DNA of 61,612 bases from Verrucomicrobiales bacterium (GCA_017853785.1 JAFMIX010000001.1:1-61612), one strand, 5' to 3'; numbered from the stretch's first letter, positions 1,169-61,612 are shown. Program-made: numbers and translations. The notes: generated from the letters alone by a model not told the origin.

Positions 1169-2647
1169 ATGAGGGCAAAGAAAGTCATCGTCATCGGCGC
1201 GGGCCTGGGCGGATTGTCCGCCGCCATCTCGCTGCGGCAATCCGGCTACGACGTCGAGATCTTCGAGAAGAACGACAAGATTGGCGGCAAGCTCAACGTG
1301 CTCAAGCAGCAGGGTTACACGTTCGACCTCGGGCCGTCCATCCTCACGTTGCCGCACATTTTTGAGCGGCTGTTCGAGCGCAGCGGGAAGAAGATGAGCG
1401 ATTATTTTTCCATCCGCCCGCTGCGGCCGCACTGGCGGAATTTCTTTGAGGACGGCGTGACGCTCGACCTGTATCCCGAGCCGGACAAGATGGCTGCCGA
1501 GGCGCGCAAGGTCGGCGAACCGCCGGAGAACATCGAGCGCTTCCTGAAATACTCCGCCGACCTCTACGACCTGACAAATGATGGTTACTTCGAGCAGGGC
1601 CTGGACAACTGGCAGGGCTTCGCCAAGCACTACGGGCTGTTCAAGTTTTTTCAGTTCGACCTGTTCCGCTCGATGCACCAAGGTGTGGCTTCGCATCTGC
1701 AAACGGAATATTTCCGCAACATTTTCGACTTCTTCATCAAATACGTCGGCTCCTCGGCCTATCGCGCGCCCGCGTTCATGAACTCGATGCCCACGATCCA
1801 GTTCCGCTACGACCTCTGGTATGTGGACGGCGGGCTTTACCACATCGCGCTCGGTTTGAAGCGGCTCATGGAGGAGTTGGGCATCAAGGTGAACCTCAAC
1901 GCCGAAGTCAGCGAAGTCCGGCGCGAAGGCGGCCGGGTAACGGGCCTTGTGGCCAAAGGAAAATTCCATGCCGCCGATATCATCGTGTCGAACATGGAAG
2001 TCATTCCCGCCTACGAGAAATTGCTCAACGAGGACCCGGCCTTCATCGCCTCACTGGAAACGAAACTTGAGCCCACCTGTTCGGGGCTCGTCATCGAACT
2101 TGCTTTGGATTGCCAATACCCGCAGCTCGCGCACCACAACTTCTTTTTCAGCGGCCATCAGCAGGAGCATTTCGCCAAAGTCTTTGAGCGTTACGAATTG
2201 CCCGACGACCCGACCATCTACCTAGTCGCCGCGTCCAAGACCGACCCAACCGTCGCGCCCGCCGGCTGCGATTGTCTCAAGATTCTCCCGCACATCCCGC
2301 ACATCCGCGACGACCAACCGCTCACGCGCGAGGACTATGCGAAGCTCAAGGAGCGCATCCTCGTGAAGCTGGAGCGGATGGGCCTACGCGATTTGCGGAA
2401 GCACGTCGTCTTCGAGCATTTCTGGACGCCGCTGGACATCCGCGCGCAATACAACTCCAATCGTGGCTCGATCTACGGCGTGGTGAGCGACCGCTGGAAA
2501 AATCTCGCGTTCAAAGCTCCCAAGCAAAGCACGCTCTACCCGAACCTGTTCTTCGTGGGCGGCTCGGTGAACCCTGGCGGCGGCATGCCGATGGTCGTGC
2601 TCTGCGGTCAGAACGTCGCCAAGAAAGTCGTCGCTTGGGACCGTTGA
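1169..2647 (+). CDS. phytoene/diapophytoene desaturase family FAD-dependent oxidoreductase (CrtI/CrtN-like)
   Basis: N-terminal dinucleotide-binding fold VIVIGAGLGGLSAAISL...EIFEKNDKIGGK...GYTFDLGPSILTLP, and C-terminal FFVGGSVNPGGGMPMV, typical of CrtI/CrtN desaturases. No crtB/crtM neighbour. Confidence 0.8.
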   Translation: MRAKKVIVIGAGLGGLSAAISLRQSGYDVEIFEKNDKIGGKLNVLKQQGYTFDLGPSILTLPHIFERLFERSGKKMSDYFSIRPLRPHWRNFFEDGVTLDLYPEPDKMAAEARKVGEPPENIERFLKYSADLYDLTNDGYFEQGLDNWQGFAKHYGLFKFFQFDLFRSMHQGVASHLQTEYFRNIFDFFIKYVGSSAYRAPAFMNSMPTIQFRYDLWYVDGGLYHIALGLKRLMEELGIKVNLNAEVSEVRREGGRVTGLVAKGKFHAADIIVSNMEVIPAYEKLLNEDPAFIASLETKLEPTCSGLVIELALDCQYPQLAHHNFFFSGHQQEHFAKVFERYELPDDPTIYLVAASKTDPTVAPAGCDCLKILPHIPHIRDDQPLTREDYAKLKERILVKLERMGLRDLRKHVVFEHFWTPLDIRAQYNSNRGSIYGVVSDRWKNLAFKAPKQSTLYPNLFFVGGSVNPGGGMPMVVLCGQNVAKKVVAWDR

Positions 2648-2653
2648 TCAATC

Positions 2654-3547
2654 TTACATCTTCCCGCGCGCCTGGCTGGTGATCAGCGCCACGGCGGGAT
2701 GGGCGATGCGCCGCTCGGCGGTGATGGCGTGGAACTGCACGCGGCATTTCTCGGCGCGGCCGACGGTTTGAAAGCCGTAGTGGCTCACGGCGTCATTGAC
2801 CGCCACGCTGGGCATGGCGATGAACCCGCGGCCCTCAGCGGCCATCACCTTCATCAGCGCCAGGTCTTCAAATTCCGCCACGATGCGCGGTTGGATCTTC
2901 TGCTCCCGAAACCAGGTTTCCAAAGCGCGGCGCAGGCTGGTGTTCTCCGTGGGCAGCAAGGCGGGGGCTCCGTGTAATGATTTGGGAAAATTGCGTTTTA
3001 GTTTCGCGGCTAGCTTTTTCTCGGCACAGAACGACGTGCCGGTTTCGCCGAGGGAGTGGTTGTAGGTCTTGAAGTTGGTGCTGCTGGAAGCCGGTTCATC
3101 GGCAAGGACGATGTCGAGCCGGTGGGCGGCGAGTTGGGCGAGCAGGTCCTCCATCTTGCCCTCGCGGCAGATGATGTGTGCGGTCTGCGGCATGGCGAAA
3201 ACGGGCTTGAGGATCTCATTGGTCACGAGCTTGGGGAAGGAATCCGCCACACCCACGTAAAGGCGCAATTCCTTCACGCCGGGGCGCTGCTTGACGGCGT
3301 TGAGCAGCTCCCGCCCCAGCGTGAAAATCTCCTCGGCGTAGCCGAACACGACCTGGCCGGCGTCGGTGAGTTTGTTGTTGCGGCCCTCGCGGCGAAAAAG
3401 TTTTTCCCCAAAGGCGGATTCCAGTTCGCGGATCTGCTCCGAGATGGAGGGTTGGGAGACGTGCAGCTTGGCGGCGGCGCGGGCGAGGCTGCCCTCCTTC
3501 GCCACCGTCCAGAAGTATCGCAAGTGATGATAATTGAGCCATTCCAT
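2654..3547 (-). CDS. LysR-family transcriptional regulator (NhaR-like)
   Basis: MEWLNYHHLRYFWTVAKEGSLARAAAKLHVSQPSISEQIRELESAFGEKLFRREGR: a wHTH of LysR type whose N-terminus resembles NhaR (NYNHLYYFW...). 297 aa. Confidence 0.85.
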   Translation of the reverse strand: MEWLNYHHLRYFWTVAKEGSLARAAAKLHVSQPSISEQIRELESAFGEKLFRREGRNNKLTDAGQVVFGYAEEIFTLGRELLNAVKQRPGVKELRLYVGVADSFPKLVTNEILKPVFAMPQTAHIICREGKMEDLLAQLAAHRLDIVLADEPASSSTNFKTYNHSLGETGTSFCAEKKLAAKLKRNFPKSLHGAPALLPTENTSLRRALETWFREQKIQPRIVAEFEDLALMKVMAAEGRGFIAMPSVAVNDAVSHYGFQTVGRAEKCRVQFHAITAERRIAHPAVALITSQARGKM

Positions 3548-3703
3548 GGGGGGCTCATCGTGCTTCGGATTAACCTAAGAGTCCATTCGGAAACGCGTAT
3601 TGGTTCAACGCAGACGGATCGGCTATTCTCCAACCGTCAAAGCTGCCAAAACCGGTTCAGGAGAACCAGTGGGGCGGCGGAACTGAAAAACGAAAAGCAT
3701 TTT

Positions 3704-4897: not shown

Positions 4898-6145
4898 ATG
4901 AGTGCCCGCTGGGCCAGCCGATCCGCCAACCTCATGCACGAAACCTACAACAGCGACCGCCTCAAGCTCAGCGAGCCAAACCGCGCTTCTGCCGCCATTA
5001 ATCCCCGCCTTGGCATCGTCGGCGGCGGGCAGCTCGCCAAGATGACCGCCTTGGCCGGACTCCAGCTCGGCTGCGTTGTGGTGGTCCTCGAACGCAACCA
5101 CCACAGTCCGGCGGCCAATCTCGCCTCCCATTCCCTCGTCGGCGACTGGGATGAGCCGGAGGATTTGTTGCGGCTCGCCGGGCAGGCCGATGTCGTCACG
5201 CTGGAAAACGAGTTTGTGGATGCCGCCAGCCTCGGCGCGTTGGAAGCCGGCGGCCACGCGCTATTTCCCACGGCCCGCAGCATCGCCCTCGTGCAGGACA
5301 AGCTGGTGCAAAAACAAACGCTCGCCACCGCAGGCTTGCCCGTGCCCCGATTTTGCGCGGTGGAAAATCCCGAAGCCGTCGCCCGCGCTGCCCGCCAGTT
5401 TGGGCTGCCGTTGTTGCTCAAGGCGCGGCGTAATGCCTACGACGGCAAGGGCAATGTCACCTTGCGCTCCTTGGAAGACATCGCCGGGGCATGGCAGAAA
5501 CTCGGCGGCAACGCCGGCAACGAATTGTTCGCCGAAGCCTTCTGCCCTTTTGTGAAGGAACTCGCAGTCATTATCACGCGCGGTCGCGATGGCGCGACGG
5601 CCACCTATCCGCTCGTCGAGACGGTGCAACGCGATCATGTCTGCCACCTCGTCCTCGCGCCCGCGCCGGTGGATGAAAATGTTGCGCAACGAGCCTTGGA
5701 TCTTGCCCGCCGCGCCGCGACCGCCGTGGGCGCGGTTGGCAGCTACGGCGTGGAGATGTTCCTGACCGCGGGCGGCGAGATCTTCCTCAACGAACTTGCG
5801 CCGCGGGTGCATAACTCCGGGCATTACACCATCGAGGCGTGCGTGTGCTCCCAATTTGAGAACCACGTCCGGGCCGTGCTCGGCTGGCCGCTGGGCGAAA
5901 CCCGCATGGTCGCGCCCGCCGCCGTGATGGTGAACTTGCTGGGCGACCAAAAGGCGGTCGGACGACCGGTCGGGATCGAGCAGGCGTTGGCCGTTCCCGG
6001 CGCGCACGTCCATATCTACGGCAAGGCCATGAGCGGCGCAGGGCGCAAGATGGGGCACGTGACTGCGCTCGGCACCACGCTGGCCGAAGCCCAGGCCACC
6101 GCCCAACGGGCGGCGGCATGGATCCGTTTTGGAGAAAAAATATGA
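4898..6145 (+). CDS. purK: N5-carboxyaminoimidazole ribonucleotide synthase
   Basis: [17 protein letters not shown]..., ATP-grasp core ([28 protein letters not shown]), and C-terminal [20 protein letters not shown]. The start is uncertain (ATG 4898 or 4934). The stop overlaps the purE ATG. Confidence 0.9.
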
Positions 6146-6672
6146 AATCCACCCGCAAGAAATCCGCGCCGCTCGTCGGCATCATCATGGGCAGCGACTC
6201 CGATTGGCCCACGCTCAAACCCGCCGCCGAGGCCTGCGCTGAGTTCGGCGTAGCCTGCGAAGTGCAAGTCGTTTCCGCTCACCGCACGCCGGACGACATG
6301 GCAACCTACGCCAAAACCGCGCACGAGCGCGGCCTGCGCGTCATTGTTGCGGGCGCGGGCGGCGCGGCGCATCTGCCCGGTATGGTGGCCAGCCACACGC
6401 CGCTGCCCGTCATCGGCGTGCCCGTCGAAAGCAAGTCGCTCAAAGGTCTGGATTCGCTGCTCTCCATCGTGCAGATGCCCGGCGGCGTGCCGGTGGCGAC
6501 CGTGGCCATCGGCGGCGGCCGCAATGCCGGATTGCTCGCCGTGCAGGTGCTGGCGGCCGGCGATGCCCGGCTGCGGGCGGAGGTGTTGAAGTTCAAGGGG
6601 CAGATTGCCGCCGATTCGCGCGCGAAAAACAAGCGGCTTGCCGCCGAGACCGCGAAGTTCGCCCAAGCCTGA
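6142..6672 (+). CDS. purE: N5-carboxyaminoimidazole ribonucleotide mutase
   Basis: From ATG 6142: [25 protein letters not shown]...[11 protein letters not shown]...[24 protein letters not shown], the canonical PurE. ATGA overlap with the purK stop (6142-6145). Confidence 0.95.
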
Positions 6673-6674
6673 CG

Positions 6675-7655
6675 ATGGAAATCCTTGATGCCATCCAGGC
6701 CAACCTGCTTTCGCCCGCTGTGTTGTTCTTCGCGCTCGGCCTCATCGCCGCACTCACGAAGAGCGACCTGAAATTTCCCGAGCCGCTTTACCTCGGGCTG
6801 ACGATCTACCTGCTTATCGCCATCGGGTTCAAGGGCGGCGTGGCCATCGCCGAGGTGGGCCTCGGCAAGGTCTGGTTGCCCGCGCTGGCCGCGATGGTGT
6901 TGGGCGCGCTGATTCCGCTGTGGACGTATCCGGTGCTGCGGTTCGGCGGCAAACTTTCCGCCGTGGACGCCGCCGCCATCGCCGCGCATTACGGCTCGGT
7001 GAGTGCGGTGACGTTCATCGCCGCGACGAATTATCTCAAAGCCATCAACCAACCGTTCGAGAGTTACGCCACCGCCTTTCTCGCCGTGATGGAATCGCCC
7101 GCCATCCTCGTCGGCGTGGTGTTGGGCAAGCTGGCCACGAAGAAATCCGGCGAGGCCTCCGGTGCTTCGCTCAAGCAGGCCATGCACGAGGCGCTGTTTG
7201 GCCGGAGCATCTTCCTGCTCGTCGGCGCGCTCGTGGTCGGCGCGTTGTGCGGCGAGGCTGGCATGAAGAAAGTTGAACCGTTCTTCGTCACGCCATTCCA
7301 AGGCGTGCTTGCGCTGTTCCTGCTGGAAATGGGCATCGTCGCGGGCCGGCGGCTGGGCGATTTGAGAAAGGTCGGCCCGTTCCTGCTCGCGTTCGGCATC
7401 ATCTTGCCGCTGGTCAACGGCGCGCTCGGCGTTTGGTTCGGCAAACTCACCGGTCTCGAACTCGGCGGGGCGACGTTGCTGGGCGTGTTGTCCGCCAGCG
7501 CGTCCTACATCGCCGCGCCAGCGGCCATCCGGATGTCCTTGCCGGACGCGAACCCGACGCTTTACCTCACGTCCTCGCTCGCCATAACCTTTCCGTTCAA
7601 CATCACGCTGGGCATTCCCCTCTATCTGGAGATCGCCCGCAAACTCTATTCCTAG
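6675..7655 (+). CDS. sbtA: sodium-dependent bicarbonate transporter family permease (SbtA/DUF897-like)
   Basis: 326-aa polytopic membrane protein. [26 protein letters not shown]...GFKGGVAI...[12 protein letters not shown] resembles the cyanobacterial SbtA layout. Starts 2 nt after the purE stop and is followed by a PII-like gene. Confidence 0.75.
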
Positions 7656-7657
7656 CC

Positions 7658-7960
7658 ATGACCACGCACGCCATGAAACTCGTGACCATCGTCTGCGAAG
7701 CTTACGCGAAGGCGGTGGTCACCAAACTCCTGCGCGATATCGGCGCGCACGGCTACACCCTTTTCGCCGTCGAAGGCGACGGCTCGCGCGGTCGCCGCGA
7801 GGCGGATATTCCGGAATTCACCAATATCCAAGTCGAAGTCATCGTGCCGCCGGAAGTCGCAACCGCGCTGCTCACGCGGCTGGAGAAGGAATTTTTTCCG
7901 TGTTACGGGATGATCGCCTTTGAATCCGATGTGCGCGTGCTGCGCCCGAACAAGTTTTGA
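7658..7960 (+). CDS. sbtB: PII-like signalling protein (SbtB-like)
   Basis: 100 aa: [47 protein letters not shown]...[24 protein letters not shown]. This is a beta-alpha-beta PII fold pattern with a T-loop-like [11 protein letters not shown]. Starts 2 nt after the sbtA stop. Confidence 0.75.
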
Positions 7961-8068
7961 AACCCAGTCGGGGGAGCTTTTCGCCGCGCTTTCGGCGCAA
8001 CGAAGCCCGGCCGGCGACCACATTCTGGCTTGCTAGCAGCGCAGCAATCGGCGAACACTCGCGGTTGT

Positions 8069-49807: not shown

Positions 49808-50803
49808 TTAGCGGGCGGCTTTGGCTTGAACCAGTTGCCGGGCCAGCCGCATGGCGGCGGCCATGCTGGAGGGATTCGCCCGGTTTTGGCCGGCGATATC
49901 GTAGGCGGTGCCGTGGTCGGGCGAGGTGCGGATGAAGGGGAGTCCCAGCGTCCAGTTCACGCCGGTCTCAAAGCCGATCATTTTCAGCGGCCCCAAACCT
50001 TGGTCGTGATACATGGCCACCACGGCGTCACATTCGCCGCGCAGCGCGTGGTAGAACAGGGCGTCGGCAGGCCACGGCCCGGTGACGGCCAATCGCTGCT
50101 GCTGTGCGGCTTGAATGGCGGGCGTGATGACGGTGATTTCTTCGGTGCCGATCTTGCCGCCTTCGCCGGCGTGGGGATTCAGGCCGCAGACGGCGACGCG
50201 GGCGCGGGGGAGGCCGAGGTCGCGGCAGGCTTGGGCGGCGAGTTCGATGGCGCGGGTGATTTTTTCGGCGGTGAGGTTCTGGGCAACGGCGCGGATGGGG
50301 ACGTGGTTGGTGGCGAGGGCGACGCGGAGCCAGCGGCCTTGTTCGTCGTGGCCGAGGAGCATCATGGTGGTGCGTTCGGTGTGTGCGAGGCTGGAGAGGA
50401 GTTCGGTCTGGCCGACAAAATCCCTGTGGCCAGCGCGGATGATGGTTTCCTTGTTGACGGGGGCGGTAACGAGGGCGGCAAGTTCGCCGCGCAGGCAACG
50501 CTGGGCGCCGTCGTGCAGCCAGGCCATGGCGGCGCGGGCGGCGGCGGGAGCTCCGGGGGGAAGGTTCGGCGGCAGGGATTCCGGGAGCGGCTGGACGATG
50601 GTGAATCTGGCGGTGGCGGCCGCGGCGGAAAAATCTTCGAGCGGCAGGTGGAGGCCGAGTTGCTGGTTGAGTTGCCGCAGGTGCGCGGTGTCGCCGATAA
50701 GCAGGTAGCAGGCGGAATCAGCGGGGTCGGTGGCGGCGAGGGCTTTGAGGGTGACTTCAGGGCCAATGCCGGTGATGTCGCCGAGGGCGATGCCGATGCG
50801 CAT
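49808..50803 (-). CDS. pdxA: 4-hydroxythreonine-4-phosphate dehydrogenase
   Basis: MRIGIALGDITGIGPEV...GLNPHAGEGG...MYHDQGL...TSPDHGTAYDIAG; the canonical PdxA. Confidence 0.93.
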   Translation of the reverse strand: MRIGIALGDITGIGPEVTLKALAATDPADSACYLLIGDTAHLRQLNQQLGLHLPLEDFSAAAATARFTIVQPLPESLPPNLPPGAPAAARAAMAWLHDGAQRCLRGELAALVTAPVNKETIIRAGHRDFVGQTELLSSLAHTERTTMMLLGHDEQGRWLRVALATNHVPIRAVAQNLTAEKITRAIELAAQACRDLGLPRARVAVCGLNPHAGEGGKIGTEEITVITPAIQAAQQQRLAVTGPWPADALFYHALRGECDAVVAMYHDQGLGPLKMIGFETGVNWTLGLPFIRTSPDHGTAYDIAGQNRANPSSMAAAMRLARQLVQAKAAR

Positions 50804-50815
50804 GGTAGCGGAGGG

Positions 50816-51775
50816 CTAGAAGTAGCGGACGAAGGTTTTCTTTTTGAGGCGGTTGATCCAGTCCTGCTGGATTTTGGCGCGTTCCTGGGCTTGGATAGTT
50901 TTCTCGATCTCGTCGCGGAGTTCGCTCAAGGGGCGGATCTGGGCGGGGCGGGTTTCCTCGACGAGCATGAGGTAGCAGGCGTCGGGGGTTTCGATGACGT
51001 CGCTGTGTTGACCGGCTTTGAGGGCGAAGGCGACGGTGGCGAGTTCGGCGCGGAGGACGGAGCGTTGGATCCAGCCCCAGTCGCCGCCTTGGGTGCGTTG
51101 GGAGCCGGTGGAGTAGACGGCGGCCATTTCGCTGAAGGAGGCTTCGGTGGCGATCTTGCCGAGGATTTCGGTGGCGAGTCCTTTGCGGCCTTCAGCGGTA
51201 GGGGCGGCGGTGGCGTCGAGGACAATCATGCGGAGTTTGATCTGGTCCTCCATGCGGAATTGTTCCTGGTTGGCATTGTAGTAGGCTTCGATCTTGAGGG
51301 GGGAAATGATGACGTTGGCGGAGACGTGTTTGCCGCGCATGGCGTCGATGATGATCTGGTCTTTGATCTGTTGCCGGAAGGTTTCGTAGGTGAGGTTTTC
51401 GGCCTTGAGGGTTTTGGTGAGGGTGGCGCGGTCACCGAAGCGGGTGCGGATGCGTTCCTGAACGCCTTCTTCGGTGACGTTTTCGGGGAGGCTGTAGCCG
51501 GAGCTTTTGAATTCGTGGAGGATCAACTGACGTTGCACGAGGTCTTCGAGCGAGTCGTTGAGGGTTTCGGTGAGTTTTTTCTGAAAGGTTTCGGGTTGGA
51601 GGGCGTAGCGGCTGCGGAGGAGTTCGATGGCGCGGCTGGCATTGGCTTCGACCTGCTGGTAGGTGATGACGGTGCTGCCGACGATGGCTTTGACGCCGTT
51701 GGCGAGTTCGGCGTTGGCGGGGGTGGCAAGGCGCAGCAGCGCACCGATGAGCAGTATCTGGAAGGCATTTTTCAT
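50816..51775 (-). CDS. surA: SurA-like periplasmic peptidyl-prolyl isomerase/chaperone
   Basis: From ATG at 51775: signal peptide MKNAFQILLIGALLRLATPANA, a SurA_N-like region, and a single parvulin segment (...GGDWGWIQRSVLRAELATVAFALKAGQHSDVIETPDACYLMLV). The surA-pdxA adjacency matches E. coli. Confidence 0.8.
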   Translation of the reverse strand: MKNAFQILLIGALLRLATPANAELANGVKAIVGSTVITYQQVEANASRAIELLRSRYALQPETFQKKLTETLNDSLEDLVQRQLILHEFKSSGYSLPENVTEEGVQERIRTRFGDRATLTKTLKAENLTYETFRQQIKDQIIIDAMRGKHVSANVIISPLKIEAYYNANQEQFRMEDQIKLRMIVLDATAAPTAEGRKGLATEILGKIATEASFSEMAAVYSTGSQRTQGGDWGWIQRSVLRAELATVAFALKAGQHSDVIETPDACYLMLVEETRPAQIRPLSELRDEIEKTIQAQERAKIQQDWINRLKKKTFVRYF

Positions 51776-51857
51776 GCGAGTGGAGGGATGGTAGGTCAGG
51801 GGTTTGGTGCGGTCAAGTGTGGTGGGCAGGAGGGGCAACCCTGCGGCGGGAAAGGTT

Positions 51858-54154
<2,297 letters not shown>

Positions 54155-54158
<4 letters not shown>

Positions 54159-54871
54159 TTTGCGGGGGCGGCCGGATTGGGGGAATTCAGGATGAAGTCC
54201 ACGCGCACCTCGCCTTGTTCGGGCACGGTGATTTCCCGGGTTTGGATGGGCAGACGTTCGTGCCAGACTTTCAGGCGGTAGTTGCCTGCGGGAACTTTCG
54301 GAATCAGATAATTATTCCGGTAGTCGGTGCCGGTGAACCAAGGGTTTTCCAACACGAGCACGGTGCCGCTCATGTTGGCGTAAATGGAGCAGAACACGTC
54401 CGCGCGTCCAGGTTTGGCAAAGGTCCACCTGTGCGGGTCGTCGCCTTCCCGGGAGAGGGGAAATTCAAACATCGCGACCTCGGACAGGGAAAACAATTTG
54501 TGATACACGGTGTCTTCATTCCGCCATTCCACGGTGGTGCCGACGAGCACGGGCAGCACGTGCGGGGAAAAGACGGAGTTGTTGTTCGCGTCGCGCCGGA
54601 CTTGAATGGTGACGGGAGTGCGGGGTGGTGGAAAATTTGTCCCGGTTTCGCTTTCAAGGAAGACGACAAAATCGCGCAGCGGCGGTTGGTTGGTGCGGGT
54701 GATGCCCGTTTCGGCCGGAGCACTGTCTGTGCGGGGGGGATTGCCCGTGATCTGAATCTGACCGCGCACGGTGCCGGCCGCGGCCGCGGCCGCCAGCCCG
54801 AGGCTGGCAGCTGCAGCGAGACAAAGCATTATGGGTGAACCGCGCAGCATATCGTGTTTCGCGTTGAGCAT
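54155..54871 (-). CDS. secreted cupredoxin-like plus carboxypeptidase-regulatory-like domain protein
   Basis: Ala-rich signal peptide. A cupredoxin-like segment (VLVGTTVEWRNEDTVYHKLFS...GRADVFCSIYANMSGTVLVLE), then the PAGNYRLKVWHERL...VRVDF beta-sandwich pattern. The stop overlaps the kinase ATG (ATGA at 54155-54158). Confidence 0.65.
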
Positions 54872-54982: not shown

Positions 54983-55384
54983 TCAAGTCCCGCAGCCAAT
55001 CGAGATTGCGGCGATGGCAGCAAAAAACCGGCGGGTCGCCGGACGCGCCGGTGGTGTCTGGGAATCCGATTGCTTGCCGAGCAGATTGCCGACGGCACTC
55101 TTCGTGGAATCGGCCGTCTTGCCGGCCAAGGCTTTCTGGATTTCAGCCTTGAGGGCAGCCACAAGCTTTTGCTGGGCGGCGGTCAGTTTCAAGCCGATCA
55201 GGTTGTTGAGGGCGGCAAGGGCGTCCTCAAAATCGCCGGCGCCGATGAGGCTCTGGGCTTGCTTGATGATGGCATCCGCCTTGTCGGTGGCCTGCTTGGC
55301 GGCTTCCTGCGCGGCGGTGGCGACGTCTTTCACGGCGTCCAGCGTGCGATTTTGTAGCTGGCAGAACGGCCCACCCGAAGCCAA
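54983..55384 (-). CDS. hypothetical Ala/Lys/Gln-rich helical protein (doubtful)
   Basis: 133-codon ORF with only a TTG start, or an internal GTG, and no in-frame ATG. Sequence ...VKDVATAAQEAAKQATDKADAIIKQAQSLIGAGDFEDALAAL.... A predicted terminator lies inside its 3' end, so the real extent is unclear. Confidence 0.3.
   Translation of the reverse strand: MASGGPFCQLQNRTLDAVKDVATAAQEAAKQATDKADAIIKQAQSLIGAGDFEDALAALNNLIGLKLTAAQQKLVAALKAEIQKALAGKTADSTKSAVGNLLGKQSDSQTPPARPATRRFFAAIAAISIGCGT
55021..55043 (-). terminator. putative rho-independent terminator downstream of the ABC operon
   Basis: Minus-strand reading CCGGCGaccCGCCGGtttttt: a 6-bp GC stem, a 3-nt loop and T6. An extended 7-bp pairing ACCGGCG/CGCCGGT is also possible, out to 55052. 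Confidence 0.5.
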
Positions 55385-55393
55385 GCGCAGCGC

Positions 55394-56206
55394 TCAGATG
55401 TAATTCTGGCGCAGCAGTTCCGCCACGCCGGCATCCAATTGCTCGCGGCGGCGCACCGCGTCGAAGCGGTTCAGCAGATCCTCCGGCCGCACGCGCTCGC
55501 GCTCCGCCCCGCGCAGGTCATGCAAGACCTGCCCGCGATGCATCATGACGATCCGATCCCCGAGATGCACGGCCTGCTGCATGGAATGCGTGACCATCAG
55601 CGTGGTGAGCTTGTCGCGCTGGATGATCTCGTGCGTCAACCGGATGACCTGGTCGGCGCTCTTGGGATCCAGCGCGGCGGTGTGCTCGTCCAGCAGCAGC
55701 AGATCCGGCTTGAGCCAGGAGGCCATGAGCAGCGTCAGCGCCTGCCGCTGCCCGCCCGAGAGGCTGCCGATGGCGTTGTCGATGCGGTCTTCCAGCCCCA
55801 TGTTGAGGGAGCGGATGCGGTCACGGATCTGTTGACGCAGCTTGTGGTTGAGCGCCCAACCGAGGCCGCGCGGCTGGCCGCGCCGGGCGGCCAGGGCAAG
55901 ATTCTCGGCGATGCTCATGCTGGGCGCGGTGCCGCTGAAGGGATTCTGGAACACGCGCCCGATCAATCGCGCGCGCCGGTGCTCGGGCTGGCGGGTGATG
56001 TCCTGATCCGCCAGCCGGATGCGGCCGGAATCGACCAGGAACGTGCCGGCCACCGCGTTGAGCAGGGTGGATTTGCCGCTGCCGTTGGTGCCGATAATGA
56101 TCAAGAACGAGCCCCGTTCCAACGTGAGCGTCACTCCCCGCAAAGCCCGCACCTCGTTGGGCGTGCCGGGATTGAACGTCTTGATGAGATTATGAAGTTC
56201 GAGCAT
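55394..56206 (-). CDS. ABC transporter ATP-binding protein (COG1101-type, partner of PF04392 binding proteins)
   Basis: Walker A GTNGSGKST, Q-loop, signature LSGGQRQ, Walker B LLLLDEHTAALD, H-loop MVTHS. 270 aa. Confidence 0.93.
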   Translation of the reverse strand: MLELHNLIKTFNPGTPNEVRALRGVTLTLERGSFLIIIGTNGSGKSTLLNAVAGTFLVDSGRIRLADQDITRQPEHRRARLIGRVFQNPFSGTAPSMSIAENLALAARRGQPRGLGWALNHKLRQQIRDRIRSLNMGLEDRIDNAIGSLSGGQRQALTLLMASWLKPDLLLLDEHTAALDPKSADQVIRLTHEIIQRDKLTTLMVTHSMQQAVHLGDRIVMMHRGQVLHDLRGAERERVRPEDLLNRFDAVRRREQLDAGVAELLRQNYI

Positions 56207-56210
56207 GGCG

Positions 56211-57149
56211 TCAGGTGGCGGTGGGTTTGGCGGCGGGGCGCAATTTGCGCAGCACGGCGGGCATGACGAGGGCGGCGAAAACGAACACCGCCGTGATCAG
56301 TTTAAGGTCGTTGGGATTGAGTCCCCAGCGGAGCGCGATGGCCACCAGCAGGCGGAACAGCACCGAACCCATCACCGCCCCGGTGATGAGCAGGCCGATT
56401 TTGTTGGTGCCGACCAGCGCCTCCCCGATGATGACGCTCGCCAGCCCCCACACGACCATGCCGATGCCCATCTGCACATCCACAAAGCCCTGATACTGGG
56501 CCAGCAGCGCCCCGGACAGGGCGATCAGCCCGTTGGAAAGCGCCAGCCCGAGGATGATGATGAAATCCACGCTCACCCCCAGCGCGCAGATCATCTGGGA
56601 GTTGTCGCCCGTGGCGCGCATGGCGGTGCCGAGGTTGGTGCGGAAAAACAGGTAGAGCGCGAGCCCCACGGCGAGAACCATCAACGTTGCGCCGACCAGC
56701 ATGGCGGCATCGCGGCTGCCCACCGTCCAGCCGGCGAGCAGGAACTCGGATTTGCCGCCGCCCAGAAAACTGCCGGCGAGGGATTCGGCCTGATTGGCCA
56801 GCGTGGATTCATTGAGCAGCGGGATGTTGCTTTTGCCCATCACGTGCAGGTTCACCGAATAAAGCGCGGTCATCACCAAAATCCCGCTCAAAAGCGCGTT
56901 GATCTTGAATTTGGTATGCAGCAGGCCGGTCAGCATGCCCGCCGCCGCCCCGGCCAGAAAACCGATCAGCGTGGCCGCCATCGGCGACCAGTGGTGTACC
57001 AGCAAAATAGACGCCACCGCCGCGCCCAGCGTGATGGAGCCGTCCGCGGTGATGTCGGGAAAGTTGAAGATGCGATAACTGAGATAGACTCCAAGCGCGA
57101 GCAGCGCGAGGATCAGTCCAATGGTGGTGGCCCCGATTAAAAGTGTCAT
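56211..57149 (-). CDS. ABC transporter permease (COG4120-type)
   Basis: 312 aa, about 8-10 TM helices: MTLLIGATTIGLILALLALGVYLSYRIFNFPDITADGSITLGAAV..., resembling the LivH-like permease that accompanies PF04392 binding proteins. Confidence 0.85.
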   Translation of the reverse strand: MTLLIGATTIGLILALLALGVYLSYRIFNFPDITADGSITLGAAVASILLVHHWSPMAATLIGFLAGAAAGMLTGLLHTKFKINALLSGILVMTALYSVNLHVMGKSNIPLLNESTLANQAESLAGSFLGGGKSEFLLAGWTVGSRDAAMLVGATLMVLAVGLALYLFFRTNLGTAMRATGDNSQMICALGVSVDFIIILGLALSNGLIALSGALLAQYQGFVDVQMGIGMVVWGLASVIIGEALVGTNKIGLLITGAVMGSVLFRLLVAIALRWGLNPNDLKLITAVFVFAALVMPAVLRKLRPAAKPTAT

Positions 57150-57158
57150 GACAGGATT

Positions 57159-58436
57159 TCAGGTTTGAGGTGCATGGCCGAATTGGCGCAGCGGGCTGAC
57201 CCAGCAGGCGCCGCGCATGAGGTCCGTCTCGCCCACGCCTTCGAATTCGCGGCCGTCGGCGAGCAGATGCATCACCGTGCCGGCGGCGGCGGAATTTAGC
57301 AAGGGACTCACCGTCTCCGCCAGATCCAGCCGGCCTTTCGGCAGCGGGCGATAAGGGAAAACCGCGGCGTGGAAATGCCCCGCCGCCGCAGTGCCCGGCC
57401 CGACCGGCCGCAAAAACGGCTGGGTGTCCGGCTGCGGTGCGATTTCAGCAAACCCCACGATCAGGGCCAACTGCCGTTCATTGGCGCGCTCCGTGGTGAA
57501 ATTCATCCAGTCCCGCACCTCCGGAAACGCCAGCGGCGACTGCCCCGCCGATTGATCCGGCGAGCGCAGCAAGGTGCCGCCCACCAGGCCGGCCGTCTCC
57601 GCCACGATCACAAAAGCGGCCGCCGGCACCGGCAAGGCCTCGAACGCCCGCGCCACCAGGCCGGACAGTCCGATCACGCCGCGCGGGCTGCGCCCCGCTT
57701 CAAAGCGGATCAGCCGCGAAAAACCGCCGCGCGCCGACAGCCCGTAAAGCAATTGCACCTCGGGCACCAGCTGCCCTTCGGTGACCTGATAATCCGGCAC
57801 GCTGCTGCCATCGGTGGGCATGGCTACCGCGGCCCCGGCCACGGCGAGCAGCTCGCCGTGGCGTCCCCGACCCTCCTCCGCCGTCCGGCCAAACGCGCCC
57901 AGGCCCACGGCCAACAAATCCGGCTCACAGCGCAGGCGCCGGCTGCCGGCGGCGGCCAGTTCGCCGGCGGCAAACGCCTCCGGCCGGCCGTGGAGATAAC
58001 CGGTAAAACCTCCTCCCGCCAGCGGATGCGATTCAAACTCGCATCCGTCCTGCGTCCATAAAGTCGGAGCGCTCACCACGGGTGCGCCGGGCGCGGCGGC
58101 CGCTGCCGGCGCGGGCGCGGCGCCGGGCTTTTCCGCTTTGGCCACGAGCATCGCGGCGATGCCGGACAACTGAAGCACCTCCAGCACGCTGGCGGTGGGC
58201 CGGACCACCCGCAGCGCGCCGCGGACAGCCTTGAGCTGCTTGTGATATTTCAGCAGCACCCGGATGCCGGCGGAGCTGACGTAATCCACGCGGGTGAATT
58301 CCAAATCCACTTGGTGATGGCCCGCCTGGATGGCCGCCTCGATCGCTTGCGCGACCCGGTCGGCCCAATTCGCATCCAGCCGCCCCTGCAATTGCAGTTC
58401 CTGGCGGCCTTCGTGGTGGTGTGTGGTGATTTCCAT
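57159..58436 (-). CDS. STAS-domain protein fused to an uncharacterised C-terminal region of about 300 aa
   Basis: The N-terminal 100 aa or so, LQLQGRLDANWADRVAQAIEAAI..HHQVDLEFTRVDYVSSAGIRVLLKYHKQLKAVRGALRVVRPTASVLEVLQLSGI, follows the SpoIIAA/anti-sigma-antagonist (STAS) pattern, including the DxxxVxYxSSAG segment. An Ala/Pro linker follows, and the remainder is unrecognised. Confidence 0.75.
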   Translation of the reverse strand: MEITTHHHEGRQELQLQGRLDANWADRVAQAIEAAIQAGHHQVDLEFTRVDYVSSAGIRVLLKYHKQLKAVRGALRVVRPTASVLEVLQLSGIAAMLVAKAEKPGAAPAPAAAAAPGAPVVSAPTLWTQDGCEFESHPLAGGGFTGYLHGRPEAFAAGELAAAGSRRLRCEPDLLAVGLGAFGRTAEEGRGRHGELLAVAGAAVAMPTDGSSVPDYQVTEGQLVPEVQLLYGLSARGGFSRLIRFEAGRSPRGVIGLSGLVARAFEALPVPAAAFVIVAETAGLVGGTLLRSPDQSAGQSPLAFPEVRDWMNFTTERANERQLALIVGFAEIAPQPDTQPFLRPVGPGTAAAGHFHAAVFPYRPLPKGRLDLAETVSPLLNSAAAGTVMHLLADGREFEGVGETDLMRGACWVSPLRQFGHAPQT

Positions 58437-58447
58437 GTGGCGGTGAT

Positions 58448-61384
58448 TTATCGGACGATTTCGCCAAGCTGCAACAGATCCTGCGGGAGGGTGACACCAA
58501 CAGTCCGGGCGAGATCGGGGTTGAAGGTATATTTGATTTTTTGCACCAGTTGAAACGGGATGTTTGCCGGCGACTCACCCCGGAGCACGCGCGCGGCGAG
58601 GCTTGCCGAATCAATGCCGCCATCATAGAAATCACGGGACACGGTCATGAACGCGCCAGCCTTGCACTGGCCGGCGGCGAAGCCCATCAGGGGAAGCCGC
58701 GCGCGGCGGGCCGCTTGGGCGATGCTGGCAAAGCTTGCGCCCGAGAGGTTGTCCGAGATCTGGCACACGGCCTCGATGGGGCGGCTGCACAGCGCCAGGG
58801 CGGCGTCAGCAATTTCCCCGCTGTTGCTCACGCCCACCAATTCCACTTCCAGACCGAGCTCCTTGGCGGCCTTTAGTAGCTCGTCCTTGTAATAAACTGA
58901 ATTCACCTCGCCGGGCACGAACAGCGTGCCCACGCGCTTGAGGTTGGGCAGACACCGCTTCATCGCCTGCAGACCTTCCAGATGGGGGGCATTCACATAC
59001 GACCCGGTCACGTTGGGCAAATGATCCTGCTCCGTGCGCCCGGCGCCGGCCACCATCGGGTTGGCCACCAGCGAAAAAATCACCGGCCGCTTGCCGGCCC
59101 GCTGCAGTGCCGACTGCAGTGCCGGCGTGGTGGAGGTGATCAACATTTCTGAGCCGTCCGCCGCGCTGGCATCCATGATGGTGTTCAGCACCGACATGTC
59201 GCCCTGGGCGTTGCGCAGGCGTAGCTCATAGTCGCGGCCCGCCACCAGGCCGGCTTTCGCCAAGCCATCTTTGATGCCCTCGCGGTTGATCTCCACGTTG
59301 GGCGTCTCGAGATATTCCACCAGATCGATCTTGGCCCGCCGCCCCAGCGGCGCCGCCGCAGTGGCGGCGTTGGTCGTGATCGCGGCTTTCTGCTTCGCGG
59401 CTTCGGCCTCCAGTTCCGGCGGAAACGTCAGCCCGTGCTGGCGCGCCGCGTTTTCATCCAGAAAAACCTGCTTCTCCATGACATTTTCGATCGGGATGGC
59501 GGCCGGGCTTTCGCCGAGCAGCACGCGGGCGACCGGTTTGGCGACCGCGTAGCCGGGCTGGTAATATCCGAGCCCCACGCAGGCCACCGGCCCGCGGCCC
59601 GCCGTGGTGGAGTCGCTCGCGAACAGCGGCACCTTGGCGTCGCGCGCCACGCGGATCACCGCGTCCATCGCCTGCGCCACCGTGTTGTCGTCCAGGATGC
59701 AGAACGCGTCCACCCGGCGCGCCGCCAGCGCCTGCGCCGCCTGCACCACCTCGGCCGGCGTGGAGATCGTGACCTCCTCCAGCTTGATGCCGGCTTCGGC
59801 GAAAAGCTTCCGCGCCACGCTCACCACCTTCACCGAGTTGGCCTCCGAATTGTTGAAGATCACGCCGGCGGATTTGATCCCGGGCATGATCTGCCGGACG
59901 GCCTCCAGCAGCGCGCCCACCGGCGGAAAGGAGCCGATGCCCGTCACATTGGGCAGATGATTGGTAAAGCTTGTGCCCGCGCCGGCCGCGATCGGGTCGC
60001 TGCAATACGTGAACACCACCGGCTTGTGCTTCACAAAACCGATCGCCGCGCTGATCACCGGCGTGCTCATCGGCAGCACCAGATCCACATCCGAGGCATC
60101 AAAGTTCTGCAGCATGCCCGGGATGTTGGCGATCTCCGCCTGCGCGTGCATCCGGCGGATCTCCAGGTTTTTGCCCTCCTCAAAACCCAGCGCCCTCAGG
60201 CCGTCCACGATGCCCTGGCGGCACTGGTCGCCGGCGGATTCGGGCGCGAAGTAGGCCAGGCCGAGCTTGTAAACGCGCCCGGGCTGCGGCTTGAGGGCGC
60301 GCGGTGCGGGGGCGGCCTGAAGCATGGGCAGATTGGTGGCGGTGGCGGTGATGAAGCCGTCGGCGGTCTTTTTCAGGTCCGCGGGAATCTCCCAATGATC
60401 CTTGAGGCCGTTCAGGGCGGTTTCATTGTACAGGAAGACGACCGGCACAAAGTTTTCAACGGGCATGTCGGCCGGTTTTTTGCCATCCAGAACATCCGCG
60501 GCGATGCTGCCGGAATGTTTGCCGATCTCGTAATAATTCGCCCCGAGGTCGAACAGGGCGCCGCGGTTGACCGTGGGCGGCATGACGGTAAAGACCGGGA
60601 TGCGGGCGCGGCGGCAGGCTTCCACCACCTGGTCGCGGGCCGTGTTGACGACCATGTCGCCGCTGATCCACATGCATTCGACGCCCCGGGCGATGACGGA
60701 TTTCACCGATTCGATGAGGCTCATGCTATCCTCGGCGTTTCCTTCCACCAACTCGATGCCGAGTTCGCCGCAGATTTTGCGGGCGAGCTTGGTCTGCACC
60801 ATGGAATTGATCTCACCCGCGTTCCAGACGAGCCCGACCGACTTGACGTCCGGGCGCATGCGTTTGAGCGTGCGGAAAGCCTGCTCCACCGGCTGCATGC
60901 AACCCGAGCCCGCGATGTAAGGCGGATGGTCAAGGTGATTGGTCGGATTGATGCCAACCCCGGCGATATAAGGGTCGGTGACCAGGGCGAAGACGTGCGG
61001 GGTTTTCGCCCCGTTTTTGTTGGCGTTGGCGACCGTCTGCAGGGAGAGCGTGCTCAGGGAGATGATGAGATCGAAGCTGCCGGAGGTGACCTCGCGGGCG
61101 ATGGCGTTGGCGGTGCCGATGTCGCCCTCGGCATTATAGCGCCGGATGGCGATGTTTTTGCCGTCCACATATCCTCGGGCGGCCAGCACCTCGAGCGTGC
61201 CCGCCGCGCCCTGATCGAGGACGAGGAGAGAAGCGTGCTGCACCAAGGCGACCCGGACGGGTGATTTGGCCGCCCCCGCCGACCGGGCGCCCTGGCGCGA
61301 TCCCTTGTCGGTGTAAAGCAACACGGCCGCGGCCAGCGCCAGCAGAACAACGCCAAACGAAAGTCGCTTCAGGATTTCAAACAT
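58448..61384 (-). CDS. membrane-anchored protein with three tandem ABC substrate-binding domains (PF04392/COG2984-like)
   Basis: 978 aa with an N-terminal TM anchor (FGVVLLALAAAVLLY). Three internal repeats lie at about aa 43-340, 371-660 and 684-975 (nt 60365-61258, 59405-60274, 58460-59335). Recurring motifs: TDP/SDP/ANPxxAGxG, HLPNVTG, (R/K)VDA/IEAxxxxxDN, G(E/K)xPAxxP(I/V/F). Confidence 0.85.
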   Translation of the reverse strand: MFEILKRLSFGVVLLALAAAVLLYTDKGSRQGARSAGAAKSPVRVALVQHASLLVLDQGAAGTLEVLAARGYVDGKNIAIRRYNAEGDIGTANAIAREVTSGSFDLIISLSTLSLQTVANANKNGAKTPHVFALVTDPYIAGVGINPTNHLDHPPYIAGSGCMQPVEQAFRTLKRMRPDVKSVGLVWNAGEINSMVQTKLARKICGELGIELVEGNAEDSMSLIESVKSVIARGVECMWISGDMVVNTARDQVVEACRRARIPVFTVMPPTVNRGALFDLGANYYEIGKHSGSIAADVLDGKKPADMPVENFVPVVFLYNETALNGLKDHWEIPADLKKTADGFITATATNLPMLQAAPAPRALKPQPGRVYKLGLAYFAPESAGDQCRQGIVDGLRALGFEEGKNLEIRRMHAQAEIANIPGMLQNFDASDVDLVLPMSTPVISAAIGFVKHKPVVFTYCSDPIAAGAGTSFTNHLPNVTGIGSFPPVGALLEAVRQIMPGIKSAGVIFNNSEANSVKVVSVARKLFAEAGIKLEEVTISTPAEVVQAAQALAARRVDAFCILDDNTVAQAMDAVIRVARDAKVPLFASDSTTAGRGPVACVGLGYYQPGYAVAKPVARVLLGESPAAIPIENVMEKQVFLDENAARQHGLTFPPELEAEAAKQKAAITTNAATAAAPLGRRAKIDLVEYLETPNVEINREGIKDGLAKAGLVAGRDYELRLRNAQGDMSVLNTIMDASAADGSEMLITSTTPALQSALQRAGKRPVIFSLVANPMVAGAGRTEQDHLPNVTGSYVNAPHLEGLQAMKRCLPNLKRVGTLFVPGEVNSVYYKDELLKAAKELGLEVELVGVSNSGEIADAALALCSRPIEAVCQISDNLSGASFASIAQAARRARLPLMGFAAGQCKAGAFMTVSRDFYDGGIDSASLAARVLRGESPANIPFQLVQKIKYTFNPDLARTVGVTLPQDLLQLGEIVR

Positions 61385-61430: not shown

Positions 61431-61612
61431 TCAGGGTTTGACCGGCTTGATTTGCTGCGTGTAACTGACACCGATCAGCGCCCGGCTGATCCGGCTCTGA
61501 TCCAGCAGATGGCGCATGTCGCAAAAATCTCCCTGCTCCACCACGGCTGCGATTTCAGCGGCGAGGCTAGTGGGCTGCGCGTTCCAAGGCAAGGCGGAGA
61601 AAAACACCGCAT
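61431..61612 (-). CDS. 3' end of an unidentified gene (5' end outside window)
   Basis: Open frame ...AVFFSALPWNAQPTSLAAEIAAVVEQGDFCDMRHLLDQSRISRALIGVSYTQQIKPVKP, then TGA (61431-61433), 46 nt upstream of the triple-SBD gene. GC3-rich like its neighbours. No family recognised. Confidence 0.3.
   Translation of the reverse strand, partial: AVFFSALPWNAQPTSLAAEIAAVVEQGDFCDMRHLLDQSRISRALIGVSYTQQIKPVKP

Follow-up and report, generated by a model that had tools for sequence, protein, structure and literature searches.

A four-gene ABC transporter operon from a Verrucomicrobiales bacterium pairs a three-domain binding protein with a STAS-fusion subunit that may be controlled by partner switching

The operon considered here lies within a 61,612-nucleotide stretch of DNA from a Verrucomicrobiales bacterium (GCA_017853785.1 JAFMIX010000001.1:1-61612), the whole of which was analysed and is referred to as the window. 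It consists of four minus-strand genes of an ATP-binding cassette (ABC) transporter. These encode a substrate-binding protein of 978 amino acids (aa) with an N-terminal anchor and three tandem PF04392 domains (58448..61384), a 425-aa accessory protein in which a STAS domain is fused to a second domain (57159..58436; here called STAS-X), a 312-aa permease of the COG4120 type (56211..57149) and a 270-aa ABC ATPase (55394..56206). Open reading frame (ORF) calls in the window place all four genes at the coordinates at which they were first described, in an earlier note made from the sequence, with gaps of 11, 9 and 4 nucleotides (nt) between them. For comparison, one genome per species was scanned, which returned 44 related loci; synteny was then assessed by tblastn of the four window proteins against these loci.

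The binding protein matches Pfam family PF04392 three times (463.9 bits against a cut-off of 25.9; E = 2.7e-139), in agreement with the earlier reading of three tandem repeats. Domain D1 comprises residues 40-350 (60335..61267, minus strand) and occurs in all orthologues, D2 comprises residues 365-668 (59381..60292, minus strand) and is the most canonical of the three, and D3 comprises residues 679-978 (58451..59350, minus strand). The three domains are mutually just 27-31% identical. Ahead of D1, the N-terminus reads Lys6, Arg7, then 17 hydrophobic residues, SFGVVLLALAAAVLLYT (residues 9-25; 61310..61360, minus strand), and then charges; a lipobox cysteine is absent. The motif 'LGxxLIALAAGVLLYTDRGSR' is kept among orthologues, and the segment is plausibly an uncleaved signal anchor.

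The nearest solved structures to D1-D3 are 3lkv (VC_1101), 6hni (CD0873) and 3lft (SP1069), which bind phenylalanine, tyrosine and tryptophan, respectively (PMC6816091). All solved PF04392 relatives are binders of aromatic amino acids (PMC6816091, PMC9382623). The selectivity pairs of the three proteins are Glu-263/Tyr-279 in CD0873, Ala/Tyr in VC_1101 and Ala/Gln in SP1069 (PMC6816091). When these positions were transferred onto the window protein via phmmer alignments, the corresponding residues were Met268 and Tyr284 in D1, Asp591 and Tyr607 in D2, and Ala903 and Phe919 in D3. None of these pairs exactly equals that of a solved protein. The Gln at the SP1069 Gln-284 position, which marks a Trp-type pocket, is absent from all three domains and is occupied by Tyr in D1 and D2 and by Phe in D3. 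The score of 484.6 against NF041285, the TrpX equivalog model, is a total over three domains. Across loci, the first selectivity position is Met, Leu, Ile or Thr in D1, Asp or Glu in D2, and Ala in D3. The pairs are each conserved among orthologues, so that, at sequence level, the proposal of three different ligand sites is supported. By homology, the ligands would be aromatic or hydrophobic amino-acid-like solutes.

Even close relatives differ in having one, two or three binding domains, with D1 as the constant member. The second domain is usually D2, but loci L030 and L041 instead combine D1 with a D3-like domain. From locus to locus, the D1-D3 classes are orthologous. Among loci whose STAS-X proteins are 72-74% identical (L005, L006/L007 and L038), the binding protein comes in single-, double- and triple-domain forms. 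Because domain number differs at this level of identity, domain gain or loss is recent. These patterns support three distinct, conserved specificities that were probably added modularly. Given class-specific selectivity residues and a variable domain number, a broadened substrate range fits better than pure sensing.

The permease matches PF02653 (E = 4e-27) and is 57-93% identical among related loci. The ATPase matches PF00005 (E = 1e-28), and its Walker A motif, Q-loop, LSGGQ signature, Walker B motif and H-loop are all readable, so that the catalytic motifs are all intact. Over residues 1-258, it is 52% identical to its counterpart in a canonical three-gene operon. This canonical form, from a Pseudomonas aeruginosa plasmid, encodes a binding protein of 325 aa, a permease of 296 aa and an ATPase of 264 aa and has no STAS gene, just as the earlier note had described the family (a binding protein of ~320 aa and no STAS component). 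A STAS-specific docking extension on the window ATPase was considered and rejected, as its C-terminal tail is shared with the canonical ATPase from the STAS-less operon.

In STAS-X, Pfam recognises the STAS domain (PF01740/PF13466) at residues 5-97 and nothing else, which matches the earlier description of a STAS domain followed by an unannotated remainder. The domain (residues 1-100; 58137..58436, minus strand) is SpoIIAA/RsbV-like by several measures. It scores 58.2 bits against TIGR00377, the anti-sigma antagonist model, above the cut-off of 53.45. Foldseek comparison with the PDB aligned it with RsbV/SpoIIAA at TMt 0.77-0.87 and far more weakly with MlaB, and a profile search of the PDB placed it nearer to SpoIIAA/RsbV (E = 1e-9) than to MlaB (E = 0.1). 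The precedent drawn earlier from MlaB stands insofar as a STAS protein lies within an ABC operon; the STAS domain itself is closer to the SpoIIAA/RsbV type. In the profile alignment, Ser55 (codon 58272-58274) is aligned with the phosphorylated Ser58 of Bacillus subtilis SpoIIAA. Ser54 and Ser55 are invariant in 39 representatives that are 31-53% identical, and the domain looks phosphorylatable at Ser55. It is followed by an Ala/Pro-rich, flexible linker (residues 101-121; 58074..58136, minus strand), which differs in length and sequence between STAS-X homologues.

The last ~300 residues of STAS-X have no Pfam match even at E = 10, and a profile search of the PDB with STAS-X returned STAS proteins only and no acetolactate decarboxylase. 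An AlphaFold2 model of the whole protein had a mean predicted local distance difference test score (pLDDT) of 83.8, with a disordered linker at residues 102-120 (pLDDT <50), and a separate model built for the C-terminal domain only had a predicted template modelling score (pTM) of 0.86. Foldseek search of the PDB with the whole-protein model returned the alpha-acetolactate decarboxylases 5yho, 1xv2 and 6inb (E = 1.4e-6; TMt 0.6-0.67). With the domain-only model, acetolactate decarboxylase was again first (E = 7.4e-6; TMq 0.47), and over the two models these matches had probability 1.0 and TMt 0.55-0.67. The next matches were the human zinc protein PTD012 and then PPC/DUF296 proteins, including the metal-containing AF0104. 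Search of a viral structure library gave nothing relevant. From these models, residues 122-425 (57162..58073, minus strand) have a predicted acetolactate-decarboxylase/PPC-like fold, so that the 'unknown domain' of the earlier note remains without a Pfam family but has become recognisable by its fold.

Kinship with acetolactate decarboxylase (PF03306) at the level of sequence was tried and rejected: Pfam gave no match at E = 10, and hhalign found nothing in global mode and probabilities of 0.5% and 2% in local mode, against an AlsD query identified solely by its Pfam match. In the same 39 representatives, the invariant residues of the C-terminal domain are His354, His356, His390, Asp215, Glu280, Asp394 and Arg396, with the three His codons at 57375-57377, 57369-57371 and 57267-57269 (minus strand). 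Given this invariant His/Asp/Glu/Arg set and the fold, a three-histidine site for a metal or small molecule is likely.

The operon order of binding protein, STAS-X, permease and ATPase is retained, with short gaps of ~10 nt, wherever a locus is long enough to display it (~40 loci), and STAS-X occupies the same position in 42 loci. The earlier note had asked whether the STAS gene is conserved within such operons; it sits at this position in every sufficiently long related locus. The loci belong to Verrucomicrobiota, Planctomycetota and Acidobacteriota, with protein identities of 37-80%; they reach down to 37% identity and include those of Pirellula/Pirellulaceae (L035, L036), an acidobacterial metagenome-assembled genome (L037) and Chthoniobacteraceae (L039, L041). 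An identical STAS-X with the same neighbours is present on three further independent contigs. STAS-X is a core component of a transporter sub-family and not a chance insertion.

More than 400 clusters of full-length STAS-X homologues were found, mostly from Verrucomicrobiota where the source is named; those listed are 397-441 aa long, with one exception of 345 aa. In their source records they are called only 'anti-anti-sigma factor' or 'hypothetical protein'. When a profile of the C-terminal domain was run against 1.84 billion representatives of 50% identity clusters, 908 clusters matched with E<=0.001, of which 422 reached E<=1e-30. Among the top 150 matches, nearly all have lengths of 405-445 aa and carry the domain at about residues 110-415, and a STAS domain is present in 39/39 sampled carriers. 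The cluster count, the uniform lengths and the constant presence of STAS indicate that the fusion is obligate and the family large. By sequence clusters, STAS-X forms a large and so far unannotated family.

Clustering of flanking ORFs across loci, confirmed by tblastn and HMM searches, revealed a second recurrent association. Among the 31 loci with enough upstream DNA, 20 have an RsbW-like kinase (HATPase_c_2) and one to four small single-domain STAS genes directly upstream on the same strand, and 14 of these 20 also have a PP2C phosphatase gene upstream of the kinase, again on the same strand. Locus L018 illustrates the full arrangement by Pfam: a HisKA-REC-SpoIIE gene (1647-3260), a HATPase_c_2 gene (3272-3691) and three STAS genes, then a 981-aa triple binding protein (5023-7968), STAS-X, permease and ATPase. 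In five other loci (L022, L025, L026, L037 and L040), a small STAS gene is instead found downstream of the ATPase. Because the arrangement of the small STAS gene differs in this way, functional linkage is favoured over inherited synteny. The small STAS proteins have a common sequence context around the phospho-site serine, which reads 'TSAGIR' in an upstream one (L018) and 'YVSSAG' in a downstream one (L040).

Two further observations concern these flanks. In L018, the region upstream of the PP2C gene (204-1749) encodes a stand-alone receiver domain as well as a protein with a TCAD9/APH-like kinase fold, and this points to a signalling operon that is longer still. Glutaminase-like genes ('ATYIPELGKANP', a motif found by eye) adjoin the operon in L013, L025, L026 and L037 (e.g. 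L037 11764-12789), in three of the four beside a small STAS gene; they could be a clue to the substrate or to an enzyme under STAS control.

The operon can be compared with several known systems. It shares its binding-domain family, PF02653 permease and ATPase type with the PF04392 importers, namely TrpXYZ of Streptococcus, the CD0873 tyrosine system of Clostridioides difficile, VC_1101 and SP1069. In these importers the receptor is one lipoprotein of ~320 aa, whereas here it is one anchored three-domain polypeptide, and a fourth gene, the STAS fusion, is added. Unlike the TrpX importer, the window operon has neither the Trp-type pocket Gln nor a T-box; an Rfam search found no T-box, riboswitch or other Rfam match. 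GlnPQ also carries several membrane-held binding domains of differing specificity per polypeptide. However, the GlnPQ domains are fused to the permease and are of another structural class, whereas those described here form a separate anchored protein of class I/cluster B and number one to three among close relatives.

The closest parallel for a STAS protein within an ABC operon is MlaB of MlaFEDB, which likewise has a Ser/Thr at the conserved phospho-site position. MlaB is a single domain of ~100 aa in an MCE-type system, whereas the STAS domain of STAS-X has a further domain of 300 aa fused to it and is encoded with a PF02653 permease and a PF04392 binding-protein-dependent importer, outside any MlaE/MCE context. 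In related loci the operon has genes for a cognate kinase and phosphatase beside it, and none is known for Mla. The SpoIIAA-like STAS domain with its serine, and the kinase and REC-PP2C genes linked in relatives, resemble RsbU-RsbV-RsbW and SpoIIE-SpoIIAA-SpoIIAB. In contrast with these partner-switching systems, including HsbR-HsbA and SypE-SypA with their non-sigma outputs, the genes are joined to an ABC importer operon with no sigma factor detected alongside, one STAS protein bears an acetolactate-decarboxylase-like domain, and the module is not visible in the window. The C-terminal domain resembles acetolactate decarboxylase (PF03306), PPC/DUF296 and PTD012 in its predicted fold, and its three invariant histidines may correspond to those of their zinc sites; it is ~70 residues longer and has no significant sequence similarity to them.

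The reading that we favour, to which we give about an even chance, is that the operon encodes an importer of aromatic-amino-acid-like solutes that is regulated via STAS-X by partner switching. In this scheme, the four genes would form a functional ABC importer of the PF04392/COG2984-COG4120-COG1101 type, whose receptor, tethered to the inner membrane, would present three binding domains of differing, conserved specificity. STAS-X would be a dedicated cytoplasmic subunit, in which a flexible linker joins the SpoIIAA-like STAS domain to the acetolactate-decarboxylase/PPC-like domain. The unphosphorylated STAS domain may dock on the ATPase by its Ser55 face and so set its activity, by analogy with MlaB and MlaF. 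MlaB residue Thr52 lies at the MlaF interface, and the mutation T52E weakens binding; the kinase is not known (PMC7367683). An RsbW-like kinase would phosphorylate Ser55 and a REC-PP2C phosphatase would remove the phosphate, and docking would be toggled in this way. The C-terminal domain probably holds a metal on its three invariant histidines and binds a small molecule, and would thereby let the subunit respond to a metabolite inside the cell, for instance by feedback from the compound taken up. In this mechanism, we infer the docking, the phosphorylation of Ser55, the metal and ligand binding, the substrate class and the direction of signal flow.

Several observations weigh against this reading. 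Nowhere in its 61.6 kb does the window encode an RsbW-like kinase, a PP2C or a small STAS protein, and seven related loci likewise have no kinase, phosphatase or small STAS gene in their flanks. The gene immediately upstream of the window operon ends at 61431, 46 nt before the binding-protein start codon, as the earlier note had said; it is cut by the window edge (61431-61612, minus strand), and its last 145 residues, recovered from L045 (2-439), have no Pfam match and are shared only with L001, and it is not a partner-switching gene. The suggestion that the operon extends upstream is borne out in relatives, by partner-switching genes; in the window's own lineage a different gene takes that place. 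No sequence sign of docking adaptation is seen in the ATPase or its C-terminal tail. The likeness to acetolactate decarboxylase is one of fold only (TM about 0.5-0.65), with no significant sequence-profile similarity, and the loci often come from related lineages, so that their counts are not independent. Because the flanks of seven loci contain no partner-switching genes, the core system must be able to work without such neighbours. Partner-switching linkage is a property of the family, and is not demonstrated for the window genome.

Two other explanations are each unlikely. In the first, STAS-X would be a soluble enzyme that converts the imported compound, perhaps through decarboxylation or hydrolysis at a zinc centre; phosphorylation of its STAS domain would switch only the enzyme and leave the transporter untouched, and its place in the operon would stem from a pathway in common. 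The nearest folds belong to zinc enzymes, namely acetolactate decarboxylase and the ester hydrolase of the PTD012 type, and the invariant set of three His with Asp/Glu and Arg looks catalytic. Partner-switched STAS-enzyme fusions have been described, such as the STAS-glycosyltransferase all4160 (PMC8256260). However, the surroundings of the operon show no further conserved pathway enzymes, and the C-terminal domain has no sequence-level membership in any enzyme family. The constant position of STAS-X between binding protein and permease, with gaps of ~10 nt, is typical of complex subunits.

The second explanation, similarly improbable, reverses the direction of signalling. Here the operon would encode a transporter-like sensor, in which transport or ligand occupancy alters STAS-X, which then competes with the small STAS proteins for the RsbW-like kinase; the target thus freed, a sigma factor or another effector, would give an output in gene regulation instead of control of uptake. 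Such a role would suit a STAS domain that is nearest to anti-sigma antagonists, and the operon is accompanied by complete partner-switching modules that include several small STAS paralogues. Hybrid histidine kinases are also encoded downstream, directly so in L019 and L032, where they overlap the ATPase end, and at 1.2 kb in the window, although they are not generally conserved with the operon. Against a sensor, both the ATPase and the permease are complete and strongly conserved, and gain or loss of distinct binding domains fits a wider nutrient range better. Many loci, including the window, have no adjacent kinase genes, and no sigma-factor gene was detected in any flank, in a weak test for SigF and RpoE matches with two query sequences. 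Least credible by far is a chance insertion of the STAS gene into an ordinary ABC operon, with the triple binding protein as an assembly or annotation artefact, which is refuted by the same gene order in ~40 loci of three phyla at 37-80% protein identity, by the identical STAS-X and neighbours on the three further contigs, and by D1-D3 classes that are orthologous across loci.

The window ends 228 nt upstream of the operon, and a promoter scan gave nothing informative. Downstream, a terminator-like hairpin followed by a T-run (55028..55042, minus strand; a consensus match only) is possibly the 3' end of the transcription unit. The hairpin (55042-55028) falls within the 3' end of a small ORF (54983-55384, minus strand; 133 aa from TTG) that begins 9 nt past the ATPase stop codon; its counterpart gene call in L045 is of 140 aa (6486-6908). 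The product is rich in Ala, Lys and Gln and looks helical, has no Pfam match and was not found in the other loci. Next lies a gene for a 238-aa protein (54155-54871, minus strand) with weak, sub-threshold CarboxypepD_reg-like Pfam matches, which overlaps by 4 nt with a 766-aa hybrid histidine kinase/response regulator (51858-54158, minus strand). These two genes, the small ORF and the tail of the upstream gene were considered as operon partners and rejected, as none is conserved with the operon. The interval 50001-54000 has a GC skew of +0.32 and an AT skew of -0.21, strong relative to the rest of the window, and contains long overlapping ORFs on both strands.

The earlier note knew of no described system with this combination, and the literature search yielded none: in the sources covered, which include a review of STAS-only proteins and represent the journals incompletely, neither the architecture nor a partner-switching module on an ABC importer is described. 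We propose, tentatively and with less confidence than the importer reading itself, that this family would be the first natural example of a binding-protein-dependent ABC importer switched by an RsbW-like kinase and PP2C phosphatase on an ATPase-docked STAS serine, with a fused metal domain that would sense an intracellular metabolite.

Post-translational regulation of ABC transporters is poorly understood, and this family offers a ready-made test system: a STAS subunit with an invariant serine at the predicted phospho-site, and a candidate kinase, phosphatase and competitor STAS proteins co-encoded in most relatives. In the case of MlaB, phospho-control was proposed without a known kinase (PMC7367683). 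STAS-X also defines an unannotated protein family that comprises 908 clusters at 50% identity and probably has a metal site. In an importer family about which little is known, and which freshwater and soil Verrucomicrobiota commonly carry, the binding proteins show that receptor domains are gained and lost as modules. If the proposed mechanism is true, two-component and partner-switching signalling, metabolite feedback and multi-receptor uptake would be joined in one operon.

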